Origin: a virus
Lineage: Duplodnaviria; Heunggongvirae; Uroviricota; Caudoviricetes
Length of the DNA stretch: 38,235 nucleotides
IMG/VR virus record: IMGVR_UViG_2563366949_000011
Strand: one strand, 5' to 3'
Within the stretch, counting starts at the first letter, position 1, and each line of letters opens with the position of its first letter. The notes under the pieces were generated by a model that was not told where the DNA came from, ran no database searches, and was given only the letters and a program-made list of their open reading frames with translations. Made by a program: the position numbers and the translations under genes. Positions 4,163 through 33,036 of this stretch are shown piece by piece.

Positions 4163-4394
4163 GTTGGTTTTTCTCCACGGATTTACCGACAACCGAAGCC
4201 CTGACTGTTCCAGCAGTTGGGGCTTCACTGTTTTGATTTCTTTGCCGCATCAAGCATCACTTCTGAAAACGTGCGCTTGCCACTGAATACTCTTTCTCTT
4301 CTCAATTTTTCGTTCGTGCCAAATGATTCGCCATGAACAAAATTTGGTCTTAAAATGGTAATCGCAATCTCTTTGACTACTGCATCCAAGCGAA

Positions 4395-26892: not shown

Positions 26893-27065
26893 TTCCTCGC
26901 GCGATGTCTTAGCCACCGGATATCCCACAGGTGAGCCGTGTAGTTGAAGGTTTTTACGTCAGATTCTTTTGGGATTGGCTTGCGTTTATTTCTGGAGCGT
27001 TTCGTTGGAAGGTATTTGCAGTTTTCGCAGATGATGTCGGTGATACTTCGTCGCTGTCGTCTCAT
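26889..27065 (-). CDS. ninD: NinD-like protein
   Basis: 58 aa from ATG 27065: [52 protein letters not shown], as recalled for lambda NinD. Confidence 0.7.
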
Positions 27066-27502
27066 GCCGCCCTGTCTCCCCATCGCGCTTTCCATTCGAG
27101 AGCCAGTCGCGCTTCGTCTGACCACTTAACGCCACGCTCTGTACCGAATGCCTGTATAAGCTCTAATAGCTCCGCAAATTCGTTTACACGCATCCTGCTG
27201 GTTGACTGGCCTATTACCACAAAGCCATTCCCGGCAAGGTTAGGAACAACATCCTGCTGCTTTAATGCTGCGGTAAACACACACTTCCAGCTTTCTGCAT
27301 CCAGCCAGCGACCATGCCATTCAACCTGACGAGAGACGTCACCAAGGCAAGCCCAAAGCTTTCGATTCTGGTCTAAGCTGCGGTTGCGTTCCTGAATGGT
27401 TACTACGATTGGTTTGGTTGGGTCTGGAATGATTTGCTGTACTGCGTGAATAGCGTTCTGCTGATGGATGTGGCTTCTTAGTTCAAACGTTAGTTTCCTC
27501 AT
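27062..27502 (-). CDS. ninB: NinB (Orf-family recombination mediator)
   Basis: 146 aa, near-identical over its length to my recollection of lambda NinB. Confidence 0.85.
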
Positions 27503-27719
27503 GGGATGAACTCCAGTTTGCGATGTTAAATTCCCATTTAATTACCTTTGCATACCCAATTTTGAACCCATCAATACCTATCCACCGATTGCCACTCCAA
27601 TAAGCTGTACCACTTTGCTTGAAATGATGTGGATGCCTAGATTGAGTGGTCACAGTTACAGGTAAATATGGCTTCGGGTATTCCCCATTCCCTGGATAAC
27701 CAGATTTAATTTTGCTCAT
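27483..27719 (-). CDS. Hypothetical protein upstream of ninB
   Basis: 78 aa; ATG overlaps the stop of the upstream ORF (ATGA). Confidence 0.5.
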   Translation of the reverse strand: MSKIKSGYPGNGEYPKPYLPVTVTTQSRHPHHFKQSGTAYWSGNRWIGIDGFKIGYAKVIKWEFNIANWSSSHEETNV

Positions 27720-27907
27720 TGATACCCTCTCTCACTTAATCGCGCCCACGCTTCGTTAAACTCTTCTCGGGTTGCGCCGGATTTTCTTTCTTCAAACATC
27801 ATGCATTCGCTGATGTCTCCCCATGACTTTGGTCGCTTTTCAGCGAACAGATCATCCCATTCGAATACCCAGCGTCCTGATTTTCGGTATGGTAAATGGT
27901 CAGCCAT
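27716..27907 (-). CDS. Hypothetical small protein
   Basis: 63 aa ATG-initiated ORF (MADHLPYRKSGRWVFEWDDLF...); overlaps the 3' 109 nt of ORF 27799..28041 in another frame, so one of the two is probably wrong or the locus is frameshifted. Confidence 0.4.
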   Translation of the reverse strand: MADHLPYRKSGRWVFEWDDLFAEKRPKSWGDISECMMFEERKSGATREEFNEAWARLSERGYQ

Positions 27908-28041
27908 GTTGTGCTGTTCGCTGGATACCCATAGAGAACTTCGACTTTTTGATCACGGTCTTTATGCTTTTTCAGCAGGATAAAGCCAGCAACCAGCGAA
28001 GCTCCGGCAAGAATGATGATTGGAATTTGCCAGTCAGCCAC
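27799..28041 (-). CDS. Hypothetical small membrane protein (GTG start), possibly part of a frameshifted gene
   Basis: 80 aa with hydrophobic segment IPIIILAGASLVAGFILL. Its start lies inside a 27-codon ATG ORF (28034..28117) that begins ATGA-overlapped with the helicase stop; a GGGGG run sits at the frame junction. Confidence 0.3.
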   Translation of the reverse strand: MADWQIPIIILAGASLVAGFILLKKHKDRDQKVEVLYGYPANSTTWLTIYHTENQDAGYSNGMICSLKSDQSHGETSANA

Positions 28042-28113
28042 ACTTCCCTCTCCCCCAAATAAAAAGGCCTGCGATTACCAGCAGGCCTGTTACAAGCTCA
28101 GTGATGTAGATGG

Positions 28114-29490
28114 TCATACGTCAGCCCCTTGTGCATATCGTCTGCCACGCGCAGCAGGTGCATTTGATGCTGTGCAAATCTGTCTGGCTTCATCCTGGTC
28201 ACATGCAACAAAGTGTCCGTTACAGAACCGCTGGTAAACCGTACCAAGTGAGCCAAAACGGTTTTTCGTCACGATGATTTCAGCAAATGGCGCGGCGCTA
28301 CTGTTCTCGTCATATACCGCTTCACGATAGAGCATGATGATTGAGTCTGCGTCCTGCTCAATGCTTCCTGAATCACGCAAATCTGCGTTTGTCGGGCGTT
28401 TGTTTGGTCGCTTCTCAACATCGCGCGAAAGCTGACTCAGGGAGATAACGGGCGTTTTCAGGTCTTTCGCCATCGCCTTAAGGCTTCCGGAGATGTGAGC
28501 AATTGCGAGGTCGTTGCGATCTGCTTTCGGCTTCTCAATCAGGCCAAGATAATCCGCCATGATGAGTGACAGGTTTGGATTTTCCTGTTTGTGCCGTTCT
28601 GCGATTGAGCGTATTTCTTCGACCGATAACCGCGAGGCATCGACTACCCATACATCCAAATCTGCAAGCTGACTCATGCCGTTAGCAACACGCGCCCAGC
28701 CTTCATCATCCATCGATGCAGGATTTCGCAGTACGCTAACCGACATCCTCCCGGCGTTGGCAATGCTTCGCTCTGCAATCTGCAATGCGCTCATTTCCAT
28801 TGAGAAAATCAATACCCCGCGCCGGACGTCAGAACCAGGAATAACGCGGCTTGCAACGCCTTCGGCAATCTTCAGCGCCAGCTCGGTTTTCCCCATACCA
28901 GGACGAGCAGCGATTATCACTAGGTCTTCCGCGTTCATCCCTCCGGTGATGGCATCAAGTTCTTCGATTCCGGTCTTCAGGGTATCTGACTCTTCTCCGT
29001 TCCTCAGACGCCTGTCAAGCGTGTCGGTGTAGTCAGTGATGATTTCCCCTAACCGTACAGGTTTAACCTCGTCACGGGGCTTTCTGATGGCTGAAAGACG
29101 CTTTACAAGTTCATCCATCGCCTGACTCGATGCGTCGATGGTTCCGCTCTGAATTGGTTCACGCATTTCATCCATGATTTCCAGCACCAGACGGCGGTGA
29201 TAGTTATCCTCGACCATTCCGGCATATCCCTTCAGGTTTGCGGCACTCGGGCAGTTTTTGCTGGTCATCAGGATTGACGTGAAATGCTCCTCTCCGCACG
29301 CTTCGGCAACCATCAGCGCGTCGATTAGGTTTCTGTTTCGCGCCTGCTTGCGGATAACCTCGAAGGCTTTCCGGTAGAGCGGAATTGAAAACGCTTCCGG
29401 CTCAAGCGTTGCCAGAACGTCACTGGCGGTTGGTGTTAATCCACCAATCAGCAGGCCACCGATAACGCTCGCTTCGATATCCTGTCTCAT
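28114..29490 (-). CDS. DnaB-family replicative helicase (P22 gene 12-like)
   Basis: 458 aa; Walker [16 protein letters not shown], Walker B-like [12 protein letters not shown], and DnaB-like N-terminal domain; start overlaps the initiator stop. Confidence 0.9.
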
Positions 29491-30434
29491 GCAATCCCCC
29501 TGTCTGCAAACTTCCCTTCCCGAACTCCCGTTAACGAGTCTTCCCTCAGCAGGTAATCAAAATCTGCCGTCCAGCCAGTGTCGTTGTCTCCGAAGTAAAA
29601 CGGCTTGGCCTGATGCACAAACGCCCTGACATACGCTCTGAAACCGTCCACGTTTGGCGTTTTCAGTTGCGGGATGATTTTCTTCAGGCGACGTTTGCGT
29701 TTCTCGTTGAGCGCAACAGCGTGTGGCAGTCTGTCACCGACTTCGGTGTTGTAGGCGTTCAGGAAAGATTCGTAGTCGATTCGTTCTGCCCTTCGACGTT
29801 CAGGTTTATCCTGCCCATCTCCTCCCCCATTGGGGGGTAGGGGGGTATTATTTATATTCTTGTTAATACCTTCTTGTTCATGATGTGCGGTTGTTTGTGC
29901 GGCTTCATGTGCGCTTTCATGTGCGGCATGTGCGCTGAAAGCCGCTCCATTACTGACTTCGCCATGTGCGGCATCATGTGCGGTTGTTTGTGCGGCTTCA
30001 TGTGCGGGTAAATTGTCCATTTTTTGAGCATATTCATGGTAATTTGTGATGGTTATCACACGACCTTTTTGCTTCTCTCCATCAATGGAGATCATCCCCT
30101 CTTTCACAAAAACCTGAAGCATCCGCTCAACCTGATCACGGCTTGCTGGCTTGCCATGCCTGTCGCATAACTGAAGACCTAAATCAGCTGCTGTCACAAC
30201 CAGTTGACCGGGTTGCAGATGCCATTCATGACCTTTGAAATTCGCTTTGTATGGCTTTCTGGCGGCATTCAGGAGAAGGTTTTCCCACAGGGTGCGAAGA
30301 TAAACATCTTTCGCCCATGACTGTTTCAGAATGCTCCGGTACAACGGAATGTAACCAGTTTTCTGGTTCTCCATCCTGTTGCTCCTGCGCTCGTGTGCGG
30401 CGCTGAAATCGTAGATTTTTGCTGTATTGCTCAT
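29487..30434 (-). CDS. Replication initiator (lambda O / P22 gene 18 functional analogue) containing the origin iterons
   Basis: 315 aa. Alternative start at ATG 30374 ([16 protein letters not shown]...) has a better RBS (AGGAG). Contains the internal peptide repeat [10 protein letters not shown] encoded by the iterons. Confidence 0.7.
29845..30007. repeat. Putative origin of replication: iterons inside the initiator gene plus adjacent AT-rich stretch
   Basis: Two near-identical ~33-bp direct repeats (29877-29912 and 29971-30006, ...ATGTGCGGTTGTTTGTGCGGCTTCATGTGCG) plus further ATGTGCG(G/C) copies at about 29917-29937 and 29961-29982; G-tracts and AT-rich sequence at 29827-29875. Confidence 0.5.
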
Positions 30435-30436
30435 AA

Positions 30437-30709
30437 CTACCTGCCTTGACGAAAGACCTTAAGAACATCGTTAAACTGACTTACGGATATGTCTTCTTTG
30501 AGAAGCTTTTCCAGAAATGCGTTTGGAATGAACGTATATCCCTCCTCTTTTGGGAGAGACGGGAGCAACGCCCTCGCCTCAGCTTTCAGAAGCTCAGTTC
30601 TGGCAACTTTCACAAAAGAGATTTGAGTTCTTTCATCAATGGAACGAAGGAAGCGCAAACGCTTAGCTTCTTTGTGTGTATCAGGTGGATTAAAGCCTTT
30701 GTTTCGCAT
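30437..30709 (-). CDS. Hypothetical protein between cII and the replication initiator gene
   Basis: 90 aa from ATG 30709 (MRNKGFNPPDTHKEAKRLRFLRSIDER...). The longer ORF-track version overlaps cII out of frame and is not credible. Confidence 0.45.
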   Translation of the reverse strand: MRNKGFNPPDTHKEAKRLRFLRSIDERTQISFVKVARTELLKAEARALLPSLPKEEGYTFIPNAFLEKLLKEDISVSQFNDVLKVFRQGR

Positions 30710-30731
30710 ATAATTACCTCGCTGGATGTTG

Positions 30732-31025
30732 TTAAAATTCCATTTGTATTTGATCAGAACGCTCGGTTGCCGCCGGGCGTTTTTTATTGGTGAGAATCGA
30801 AGCAACTTGTCGTGCCAATCGAGCCATGTCGTCGTCGACAACACCCCATTCAAGAACAGCAAGCAGCATTGAGAACTTTGGAATCCAGTCCCTCTTCCAC
30901 CTGCTGATCTGCGACTTATCAACGCCCACAGCTTCCGCTGTCTTCTCAGTTCCAAGCATTGCGATTTTGTTAAGCAACGCACTCTCGATTCTTAGAGCCT
31001 CGTTGCGTTTGTTTGCACGAACCAT
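30732..31025 (-). CDS. cII: CII transcriptional activator (lambda type)
   Basis: 97 aa from ATG 31025: MVRANKRNEALRIESALLNKIAMLGTEKTAEAVGVDKSQISRWKRDWIPKF..., essentially as I recall lambda CII. The ORF-track 5' extension runs over nutR and is rejected. Confidence 0.85.
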   Translation of the reverse strand: MVRANKRNEALRIESALLNKIAMLGTEKTAEAVGVDKSQISRWKRDWIPKFSMLLAVLEWGVVDDDMARLARQVASILTNKKRPAATERSDQIQMEF

Positions 31026-31082
31026 ATGTAAGTATTTCCTTAACAAATAAGAAGTTATGCGCATCAACTTATGCGCGTTGTA

Positions 31083-31128
31083 TTCCCGCATTTCGGCGGG
31101 AATGAGGACCATGACTGTTAAAGAGCAA
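31083..31128 (-). promoter_or_regulatory. nutR-like site: boxA plus boxB hairpin
   Basis: Minus-strand sense reads TGCTCTTTAACA (boxA-like; lambda boxA is CGCTCTTACACA) followed by the hairpin TTCCCGCCGAAATGCGGGAA; the same boxA/boxB pair recurs in the leftward operon. Confidence 0.6.
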
Positions 31129-31133
31129 TTTGC

Positions 31134-31319
31134 TTATGCCGCTTTGCGGTAAGCGCTTTCTTGATACTTCAGGGCGCCAGCTGTAACGACTTCCAGTCGA
31201 TAGGCGTCTTTCTCTGGGATGACTTCCTTCCACTGAGAGACTGCTGCGTCGCTAATGCCTAACGCTTTAGCTACAGCACGCTGGGTTCCGAAGTGGTCGA
31301 TAACATCTTTCTTGTACAT
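31134..31319 (-). CDS. cro: Cro-like repressor
   Basis: 61 aa with HTH GTQRAVAKALGISDAAVSQW; divergent from c2 across the operator region. Confidence 0.8.
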   Translation of the reverse strand: MYKKDVIDHFGTQRAVAKALGISDAAVSQWKEVIPEKDAYRLEVVTAGALKYQESAYRKAA

Positions 31320-31399
31320 AGACTCGCTCCGAAATTAAAGAACACTTAAATTATCCACTAAAGGAATCTTAAGTCAAGTTTATTTAAGATGTCTTAACT
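31320..31399. promoter_or_regulatory. OR operator region with pR (and presumably pRM)
   Basis: P22-type operator-like sequences ATTAAAGAACACTTAAAT (31334-31351) and ATTTAAGATGTCTTAA (31382-31397). On the minus strand, TTGACT (complement of 31372-31377) and ATAATT (complement of 31349-31354) with 17-bp spacing form a pR-like promoter for cro. Confidence 0.6.
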
Positions 31400-32050
31400 A
31401 TGAAAACTCAATTGATGGGAGAGCGCATTCGCGCTCGGAGAAAAGAACTCAAGATCAGGCAGGCCGCACTTGGAAAGATGGTCGGCGTGTCTAATGTTGC
31501 CATATCTCAGTGGGAACGCTCTGAGACAGAGCCAAATGGAGAGAATCTTCTCGCCCTGGCTAATGCGTTGAAGTGTTCCCCTGACTATCTGATGAAAGGA
31601 GAGGAAAGTCTTTCAAACATTGCCTATCACAGTAGGCATGATCCAAGAGGGTCATACCCTCTGATTAGCTGGGTGAGCGCAGGATGCTGGATGGAAGCTG
31701 TAGAACCATATCATAAGCGTGCAATAGATAACTGGTACGATACAACCGTAGACTGTTCAGAAGATTCGTTTTGGTTGGACGTGAAGGGAGACTCAATGAC
31801 GGCTCCGGCCGGTCTCAGTATCCCTGAAGGAATGATAATACTCGTCGATCCTGAAGTAGAGCCGCGTAACGGGAAACTGGTAGTTGCAAAGCTCGAAGGA
31901 GAAAACGAGGCAACTTTCAAGAAGTTAGTTATTGATGCAGGCAGGAAGTTTCTAAAACCACTTAACCCACAATATCCGATGATCGAGATCAACGGAAACT
32001 GCAAAATCATCGGCGTAGTTGTCGATGCAAAACTAGCAAACCTTCCATAA
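31400..32050 (+). CDS. c2: C2-type prophage repressor (P22 C2 / lambda CI family, LexA-like autocleaving)
   Basis: 216 aa; near-identical over most of its length to my recollection of P22 C2 (MNTQLMGERIRARRKKLKIRQAALGKMVGVSNVAISQWERSETEPNGENL...). Confidence 0.9.
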   Translation: MKTQLMGERIRARRKELKIRQAALGKMVGVSNVAISQWERSETEPNGENLLALANALKCSPDYLMKGEESLSNIAYHSRHDPRGSYPLISWVSAGCWMEAVEPYHKRAIDNWYDTTVDCSEDSFWLDVKGDSMTAPAGLSIPEGMIILVDPEVEPRNGKLVVAKLEGENEATFKKLVIDAGRKFLKPLNPQYPMIEINGNCKIIGVVVDAKLANLP

Positions 32051-32074
32051 GGGGGCATTCGCCCCTTTTTTTTA
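32051..32074 (+). terminator. Rho-independent terminator immediately after c2
   Basis: GGGGGC-ATTC-GCCCC hairpin (32051-32065) followed by a 9-T run. Confidence 0.7.
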
Positions 32075-32141
32075 TTTCCTTTAAAAATCAAAGCCAAACT
32101 TAAGTTACGAAAGAAAATTTAAGTTTTCTTCAAAAATACTC

Positions 32142-32170
32142 TTGACCATTAATTAAAGAGATCTTAAATT
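32142..32170 (+). promoter_or_regulatory. pL-like promoter embedded in OL operator repeats
   Basis: TTGACC (32142-32147) and TAAATT (32165-32170) with 17-bp spacing; surrounded by TTAAG-containing operator-like half-sites between 32095 and 32180. Confidence 0.45.
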
Positions 32171-32216
32171 TAAGCCATCAGCAGGACGCTGGTAGCCAAA
32201 CGGAACAGATTGGCAG

Positions 32217-32258
32217 GCTCTTTAACATTGATGGGATTGTCCCGCCGAAATGCGGGAA
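32217..32258 (+). promoter_or_regulatory. nutL-like site: boxA plus boxB hairpin
   Basis: GCTCTTTAACA followed by TCCCGCCGAAATGCGGGAA, the same boxA/boxB pair as nutR in transcript sense. Confidence 0.6.
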
Positions 32259-32658
32259 CCAAAGAGTAGTTGGCTTTGGGATTGGATGAATGAGCAGGCT
32301 GATGCTCGACCAATGTATAAACAGCGCTCATGGCAAGCAGTAACCAATCTGCGCCTCAAGACAGCGTCACTGGTAGTGCGGGCGCTCTAACCAGTAAGCC
32401 GGAGTTCAGCACCGGCCATCCAATCGCCAAAGTCAATTCCATAGGCGTTATGCAGCCGCCACCATATTCAAGAAAGCTGCACAAGAGGTAGGAGGATTTA
32501 TGTGAATACTTACATTCAGTTGAGAGATTAATTAAATAGAACTGATCGAGCAGAGTCCATGAAGGATCATAAATGCTCTTCCATCCCCGTCTAATTGGCG
32601 GGGATGGAAACCACTTTGTAATAAAAAAAATTCCAAAGTTGTTTCATCGGAGGTCAAC

Positions 32659-32958
32659 ATGACAGTAGTCATTACATATCTGGCTGACGATAACGCCAGA
32701 AATCGCCGCAGAGCACGCAGACAGGCTCAACGTGAACAGGCAATGCAAGAACAGCGACTGGCGCGAAAGATTGCGCTAAAGCTCTCTGGTTGCGTCAGAG
32801 CAGACAAAGCAGCATCACTCGGAAGCCTTCGCTGCAAGAAGGCAGAAGAAGTCGAGAGTAAACAGAATCGTATTTACTACCGCAAGCCACGCAGTGAAAT
32901 GGGGGTGACTTGTGTTGGTCGCCAGAAAATGAAATTAGGAAGCAAACCACTTATTTGA
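32659..32958 (+). CDS. N-like antitermination protein with arginine-rich motif
   Basis: 99 aa, GGAGG RBS; N-terminal ARM DDNARNRRRARRQAQREQ; first gene downstream of pL/nutL. Confidence 0.6.
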   Translation: MTVVITYLADDNARNRRRARRQAQREQAMQEQRLARKIALKLSGCVRADKAASLGSLRCKKAEEVESKQNRIYYRKPRSEMGVTCVGRQKMKLGSKPLI

Positions 32959-33036
32959 GGTGATATATGGAAGAAGAATTTGAAGAGTTCGAAGAGCATC
33001 CGCAGGATGTGATGGAACAATACCAGGACTATCCTT

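Follow-up and report, generated by a model that had tools for sequence, protein, structure and literature searches.

A probable replication origin built from 12-nt direct repeats inside the O-like initiator gene of a P22-like lambdoid phage

Does a short tandem repeat in the middle of a phage replication initiator gene serve the encoded protein, or does it mark the place where the phage begins to copy its DNA? The question is raised by a 315-codon open reading frame in a viral sequence of 38,235 nt (IMG/VR record IMGVR_UViG_2563366949_000011), the whole of which is called the window here. An earlier note, made from the letters alone, had described an array of repeated motifs within this gene, followed by an AT-rich segment, and had proposed the region as a candidate origin arranged as in lambda. 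Comparison of the locus with its relatives indicates that the array is very probably the phage replication origin, lying where the phage's own initiator gene codes for a linker.

The window comes from a P22-like (Lederbergvirus-type) lambdoid phage. Its initiator gene shares 98% DNA identity with the ‘replication protein O’ genes of HF4s, CUS-3, and JEP4, and about 97.5% with those in about 48 records of Stx2a-converting phages. In transcript sense, the gene is preceded by those for a CI-type repressor, cro, and cII, and is followed by a DnaB-type helicase gene and then the nin genes. The helicase start codon overlaps the initiator stop codon (ATGA, 29487-29490), an arrangement that suggests translational coupling of the two genes. 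A further open reading frame (about 30437-30712, minus strand) lies between cII and the initiator gene, where P22 has orf48 and HK97 has gp53; CUS-3 carries no annotation for it, and its long form of 181 aa found no match in Pfam.

The repeats were found inside the initiator gene at the place assigned to them by the earlier note, and the ATGTGCG(G/C) motifs it had listed were recovered: between 29880 and 30008, the plus strand has seven ATGTGCGS and two copies of TTGTGCGG. On the coding (minus) strand, the array comprises nine SCGCACA cores, all in one orientation and in 12-nt phase, within 124 bp. The window holds 16 matches to this core in total, nine of them in these 124 bp and all nine on the minus strand, with seven elsewhere in the 38 kb. 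About 0.02 same-strand matches would be expected in an interval of this length (Poisson P about 1e-21, or about 1e-16 once every window position is allowed for), and no second SCGCACA cluster occurs in the whole 38-kb window. The two near-identical direct repeats reported before are also real, although their length was given as 33 bp and the copies (29879-29913 and 29972-30006) measure 35 nt, with 34 of 35 positions identical. The 10-residue peptide repeat is likewise encoded twice in the 315-aa frame. Repeat starts are spaced by 12, 12, 45, 12, and 12 nt, and TRF reports a period of 12; the repeat unit is therefore 12 nt, or four codons, with a core of 7-8 nt.

The array takes up codons 143-185, between the N-terminal and C-terminal domain parts of the gene (the latter from about aa 205), and it begins 11 codons past the end of the Phage_rep_O domain at aa 132. 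Read in codons on the coding strand, the left cluster consists of CCC GCA CAT GAA, GCC GCA CAA ACA, ACC GCA CAT GAT, and GCC GCA CAT GGC, and the right cluster of GCC GCA CAT GAA, AGC GCA CAT GAA, GCC GCA CAA ACA, and ACC GCA CAT CAT; the spacer between them reads GAA GTC AGT AAT GGA GCG GCT TTC AGC GCA CAT. Extra repeat copies had been noted as well, and they are present, with the qualification that the ninth core copy forms the final 9 nt of the spacer (29928-29936) and so lies outside the canonical units. At its polymorphic base (GCA in the window), the minority allele occurs in 17 of 63 close-relative haplotypes, and the SVH/GTA reading is the commoner one among the variants listed. Because the ninth copy sits in the spacer and is polymorphic, the canonical array is counted as 4+4 units. 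Neither dyad symmetry in the 12-nt units nor an inverted repeat within the array was found. DnaA boxes (TTWTNCACA) match at 1684, 5631, and 26873, none of them near the array, and an Rfam scan of the whole window returned nothing in the array region. A tenth CCGCACA copy (30394-30400, minus strand) occurs in the initiator leader at codons 12-13, within the peptide SAAH. It was considered as an autoregulatory site and set aside; it is probably not an iteron, because S.Inf 5-2 shares the SAAH leader but has other iterons.

Table 1. Coordinates of the replication region in the window, with the basis of each assignment.
Feature	Position	Strand	Basis or remark
DnaB-type replicative helicase gene	28114..29490	-	Pfam DnaB_C, E 9.4e-78; DnaB N-terminal domain, E 4.4e-13
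O-like replication initiator gene, 315 aa	29487..30434	-	ORF; Pfam Phage_rep_O; probable origin inside gene
C-terminal domain, P22 gp18 / HK97 gp54 type	29490..29822	-	BLASTP
C6-TA-C6-AAT-G5 element CCCCCCTACCCCCCAATGGGGG, C5/G5 inverted repeat	29824..29845	-	read directly
AT-rich stretch GAACAAGAAGGTATTAACAAGAATATAAATAATA, candidate DNA unwinding element	29846..29879	-	about 79% A+T
Right iteron cluster, four 12-nt units GCCGCACATGAA, AGCGCACATGAA, GCCGCACAAACA, ACCGCACATCAT	29880..29927	-	
Spacer of 33 nt GAAGTCAGTAATGGAGCGGCTTTCAGCGCACAT	29928..29960	-	between left and right iteron clusters
Left iteron cluster, four 12-nt units CCCGCACATGAA, GCCGCACAAACA, ACCGCACATGAT, GCCGCACATGGC	29961..30008	-	
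SCGCACA cores 1-4	30001-30007, 29989-95, 29977-83, 29965-71	-	motif scan
SCGCACA cores 5-9	29929-35, 29920-26, 29908-14, 29896-902, 29884-90	-	motif scan
Winged-helix N-terminal DNA-binding domain (predicted), aa 20-140	30015..30377	-	AlphaFold model
D100 codon	30135-30137	-	within predicted recognition helix, aa 99-111

The AT-rich segment and G-tract expected downstream of the repeats in transcript sense are in place (29846-29879, then 29824-29845), with the plus-strand G-tract corresponding to the C6-TA-C6-AAT-G5 element of the coding strand. The 30-mer at 29846-29875 is 83% A+T; only one other 30-mer of the window is less stable, and none within 27000-32500, so that an easily melted stretch directly adjoins the repeats, as in lambdoid origins. 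No polymorphism was seen at any of 35 positions of the AT-rich stretch in the 63 haplotypes, and its first 20 nt (GAACAAGAAGGTAATAACAA) are kept across 45 prophage loci. The C5/G5 element that follows is also present in P22, HK97, S.Inf 5-2, ENT1, and L129, regardless of the type of N- or C-terminal domain, and it falls within the rep_origin annotated in the P22 record; lambda-type genes have a GTCAGAG...CTCTGAC inverted repeat in its place. We provisionally assign it to the origin or to the module boundary. Among the 80 near-identical IMG/VR contigs (L010-L089), a few carry frameshifts in or near the C6/C6/G5 runs (peptides …NNTPYPPMGEAMGR), which are probably homopolymer sequencing errors or slippage.

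The protein encoded by the gene is an O-type initiator, with a Phage_rep_O N-terminal domain and a separate C-terminal domain. Pfam Phage_rep_O (PF04492) covers aa 20-132 (E 3.2e-15), and the same model is matched by lambda O and P22 gp18. A structure predicted by AlphaFold from 24 sequences, with mostly partial or frameshifted protein-search entries serving for the alignment, gives a pLDDT of about 90 over aa 29-140, with a helix-turn-helix and beta-wing topology. Foldseek against the PDB returned no match at E <= 0.001 for the N-terminal domain; its matches were weak and all to winged-helix regulators (best E 5.8e-3), and among solved structures there was no sequence relative at E up to 1. 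Residues 141-205, encoded by the array and the AT-rich stretch, have a pLDDT below 50 and follow a winged-helix domain that is modelled with confidence; this peptide is predicted to be disordered and resembles a linker tolerant of change. The C-terminal part is of the P22 gp18 / HK97 gp54 type: BLASTP aligns aa 185-309 with P22 gp18 at 56% identity (E 2e-50), and the C-terminus is about 95% identical to that of HK97 gp54. A gp18-type C-terminal domain followed by a phage-encoded DnaB-type helicase constitutes an initiator-helicase module of the P22 type. A second frame is open through the whole array (61-aa ORF, 29852-30037, minus strand), and the homologues P0017, P0027, P0033, P0039, and P0044 are frameshifted into it, ending in the AT-rich stretch (…QKWTIYPHIKPH…IMNKK..TRI). 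Such homologues would yield proteins consisting of the N-terminal domain only; sequencing error, decay of the prophage, or genuine truncation may lie behind them.

The constraint on the array is at the level of DNA. It was measured in 45 prophage loci from different enterobacterial species, with N-terminal domains 67-87% identical, by taking three 12-nt units from each array end in a fixed register (270 units). Their consensus is NCC GCR CAT AAN. Position 3 is C in 269 of the 270 units while its codon encodes eight different amino acids (P, A, G, S, T, N, R, and Y), compared with a background of 29% C at four-fold third positions in the rest of these genes; the G at position 4 is equally constant (269 of 270). 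Alanine is written only as GCA or GCG, although GCC and GCT make up 57% of the background, histidine as CAT 209 times and CAC once, and the synonymous choice between GCA and GCG is concerted over all units of a locus. Conservation thus peaks at synonymous sites while the encoded amino acids vary, which places the constraint on the DNA rather than on the peptide. The same tendency was found on a shorter time scale in the 63 haplotypes drawn from the 80 IMG/VR contigs (N-terminal domains at least 99% identical), where 8 of 56 core sites are polymorphic versus 22 of 40 non-core sites (Fisher 3.8e-5). One finding counts against the origin reading: among these close relatives, polymorphism over the entire array is about three times higher than in the N-terminal domain.

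The layout is conserved as well. Across the 45 loci, the array has 3+3 units in 25 and 4+4 in 20, and the spacer measures 33 nt in all 45. The comparison of spacers took in the window (29928-29960) and loci L090-L135 and L137-L213; the first 21 nt or so (consensus GAA GCC AGT AAT GGC GCG GCT, xPSNGAA) are semi-conserved despite differing iterons, and conservation is often lower at second codon positions than at third ones. Locus L137 (IMGVR_UViG_2872672955_000002) has the 69-nt block of three units plus spacer three times in succession, followed by the last three-unit cluster, so that the linker region of its O homologue contains four unit clusters and three spacers; these block copies show array expansion by unequal crossing-over.

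The repeats also appear to be matched to the DNA-binding domain of the initiator and to be independent of its C-terminal domain, as a specificity module would be. Two array types occur in the 45 loci: CGCACAT in 21, the window included, and CGCGCAT/CGAGCAT in 24. The type is perfectly predicted by residues 82 (A/P versus S/T), 100 (D versus H), and 118, which in the model fall, respectively, where helix 2 begins, on residue two of the recognition helix (aa 99-111), and within the wing. A tree built without these three columns implies two independent type switches, including one in the pair L103/L117 at 85% identity. Co-inheritance through linkage could explain this co-variation, because the helix-coding region lies about 130-300 bp from the array and the switches are few. 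More diverged N-terminal domains (about 46-65% identity) keep 3-4 units, the 33-nt spacer, 3-4 units, GAACAGAACAAGAA..., and the AT-rich stretch, with the cores CGATGAACC, CGTCGAACC, or GGTAACAAA. Units read NNC GAT GAA CCN in the S.Inf 5-2 group (46% identity to the window), NNC GTC GAA CCN in the ENT1 group, and GAG GTA ACA AAS in the L170-L187 group; in these sub-families, the base before the core is kept and the amino acid changes (GVE, SVE, PVE, IVE, TVE). The same N-terminal domain and array are joined to at least four types of C-terminal domain, namely lambda-O, P22 gp18, ENT1, and L129. The lambda-O type is found in 43 loci, and in Mulock and vB_YenM_210.17 its neighbour is lambda-P-like; the P22 gp18 type occurs in the window and L123. 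HK97 and P22, conversely, share the window's C-terminal domain (95% and 56-59%) but have lambda-like N-terminal domains and their own repeats of about 20 bp. Exchange of the N-terminal domain and array as a unit is the behaviour expected of an origin-specificity cassette.

The likeness to lambda claimed at the outset holds for the position and order of the elements and fails for the structure of the iterons. As in the lambda origin (ITN1-4), a Phage_rep_O initiator carries repeats just after its N-terminal domain part, an AT-rich stretch and then a GC-containing inverted repeat follow in transcript sense, and the N-terminal domain and repeats form one exchangeable module; the annotated lambda iterons occupy codons 117-145, past a domain that ends at aa 115, with starts 20-24 bp apart. 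Lambda, however, has four symmetric units of about 18-19 bp, whereas the window has 4+4 direct units of 12 bp, without dyad symmetry, around a 33-bp spacer, and these do not belong to the lambda iteron type (about 18-19 bp with internal dyad symmetry, in four to six copies). The N-terminal domain shows no meaningful BLASTP similarity to that of lambda beyond the first 65 residues or so (E 0.005), the C-terminal domain is of the P22 type, and a DnaB-type helicase takes the place of lambda P as partner. Iterons of plasmids are about 17-22 bp long and usually lie outside the rep gene, beside DnaA boxes. The array resembles iteron-plasmid origins (RepA, RepE, pi) in its direct repeats of one orientation, its AT-rich element, and presumed winged-helix binding; it falls outside that class in having 12-bp units inside the gene and no DnaA box nearby.

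Closer parallels exist among the P22-like phages. The P22 origin in gene 18 (rep_origin 32840-32984, BK000583), which is annotated as ‘similar to phage lambda’ and was thus also placed by inference, is comparable in its position within the initiator gene, the type of C-terminal domain (56% identity), the downstream DnaB-type helicase (gene 12), the AT-rich stretch followed by a C5/G5 element, and the gene order. It differs in its lambda-like N-terminal domain and in its four repeats of about 20 bp, which have another sequence (PMC8022706). Phage L has six imprecise 11-bp repeats (TGTCCAACGGA) in gene 18, proposed as its origin from sequence alone (PMC8022706); these are likewise short direct repeats inside gene 18 of a P22-like phage, although by the published description the core is another one and no 4+4 bipartite layout is reported (PMC8022706). 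Lambda, P22, and L each have their own iterons inside gene O or 18 (PMC8022706). Iterons with an AT-rich tract in the middle of O make up the functional origin in lambda and in Stx phages, and origin-specificity cassette behaviour has been functionally demonstrated for lambda, P27, and 933W (PMC7466680, PMC3349717).

Other functions could be imagined for such an array. It might be kept for the protein, with a His/Ala-rich linker under selection and the DNA repeats a by-product without any binding-site role. The repeats are in frame, their units are multiples of 3 nt, the AH dipeptide occurs in all relatives, and the predicted disorder of the segment would suit a linker. A peptide-level explanation nevertheless sits badly with third positions that stay fixed while the codon passes through eight amino acids, with alanine and histidine restricted to essentially one or two codons and GCA or GCG chosen in concert at each locus, and with sub-family peptides as different as PDEPCDKPSD, VEGSDEPPVE, and EVTKEVTN under the same DNA layout; we regard it as highly improbable. 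A signal in the initiator message, whether mRNA structure, programmed frameshift, or attenuation, would draw on the second open frame over the array and on the several homologues shifted into it. The positions of these frameshifts differ among homologues, as expected of errors or pseudogenes, and the units are direct repeats without complementarity. The fold of the array is unremarkable (z = -1.32, with 21 of 200 shuffles folding as well), and RNA structure in the array was rejected on this score. A role in RNA is therefore scarcely conceivable.

Two further explanations accept a function in DNA. The array could bind the initiator while replication starts elsewhere, acting through titration or handcuffing, or in incompatibility or exclusion between related phages. 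Plasmid-borne lambda iterons do inhibit rep-lambda phages (PMC3349717), and the A and G sub-types resemble specificity or incompatibility classes. A control role of this kind would add to origin function and would not replace it; moreover, the AT-rich stretch that is least stable in the region directly adjoins the array, in the order of the functional lambda origin, and the 38-kb window has no second core cluster, so that replacement of the origin by titration is very unlikely. The alternative of a recombination junction, at which short boundary sequences promote the exchange of N- and C-terminal modules and repeats arise by unequal crossing-over, agrees with module junctions lying at the AT-rich stretch and C/G element, with the presence of that element in otherwise unrelated modules, and with an array that is polymorphic among close relatives and that has three copies of the 69-nt block in L137. 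It leaves unexplained why third positions of the core are conserved over 45 species and why the core differs in step with the DNA-binding domain. It does not compete with origin function, with which it is compatible; on its own, we give it hardly any credence. Neither titration nor recombination accounts for the contiguous AT-rich minimum or the lone core cluster, while either role may well coexist with that of an origin.

Under the favoured reading, that of a replication origin, the N-terminal winged-helix domain would bind the 7-8-bp SCGCACAT cores, as co-variation and position suggest, in two clusters of four 12-bp-phased direct repeats flanking the 33-bp spacer. By analogy with the lambda O-some, the resulting nucleoprotein complex would destabilise the adjacent AT-rich stretch of 34 bp, which the C/G palindrome would bound on the far side. 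The P22 gp18-type C-terminal domain would then recruit the DnaB-type helicase of the phage itself, as the pairing of P22 genes 18 and 12 implies, and rightward early transcription would pass through the origin, as in lambda. Because the sites lie in a reading frame, units of four codons and a disordered Ala/His-rich linker of little sequence importance would follow. Tandem head-to-tail binding seems more likely than lambda-style dimers on symmetric sites. A more specific and distinct design can be put forward tentatively and is, on balance, rather unlikely to hold: on two blocks of 7-bp cores in 12-bp phase, winged-helix domains would be tiled head-to-tail; the universally conserved 33-bp spacer would act independently of iteron specificity, as a host-factor site or a linear peptide motif; and replicon specificity would be switched when D100 is replaced by H100 and all iterons change in concert from A to G. 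If this were true, the paired change would represent a natural minimal switch of protein-DNA recognition, separating incompatible replicon classes that include many Stx2a-converting phages.

The kind of origin is already known, since iterons with an AT-rich stretch inside an O-type gene are textbook. The bipartite layout of short units is unusual, and the repeat design is, judging from the loci compared, common to a large family of enterobacterial prophages; no description of this iteron family or origin type was found in the literature or in record annotations. The matching phage records have no rep_origin feature under the match, and the region merits such an annotation. A probable origin is thereby placed for a widespread module, with initiators 96-98% identical in CUS-3, HF4s, Kapi1, and about 48 Stx2a-converting records and relatives in prophages of at least 45 enterobacterial species. 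The proposal names exact sites, namely eight 12-nt units with a 7-bp core, and pairs a candidate residue for specificity (D/H100) with A/G at core position 6. Replication of Stx phages drives toxin gene dosage, and origin studies of these phages have so far dealt only with lambda-like O proteins (PMC7466680).

Two RNA-related observations were made elsewhere in the window. At 30745-30795 (plus strand), a run of about 50 nt exactly matches the lambda oop antisense RNA over its 3' half and terminator (…TCAGAACGCTCGGTTGCCGCCGGGCGTTTTTTATTGGTGAGAA), in antisense to the end of the cII frame; Rfam at its gathering threshold gave no match at this stretch. The Rfam model of sar RNA matches at 4163-4229 (plus strand; 83.9 bits, E 2.3e-16), and, as sar is an antisense RNA of the P22 immI region, this match fits a P22-like phage.
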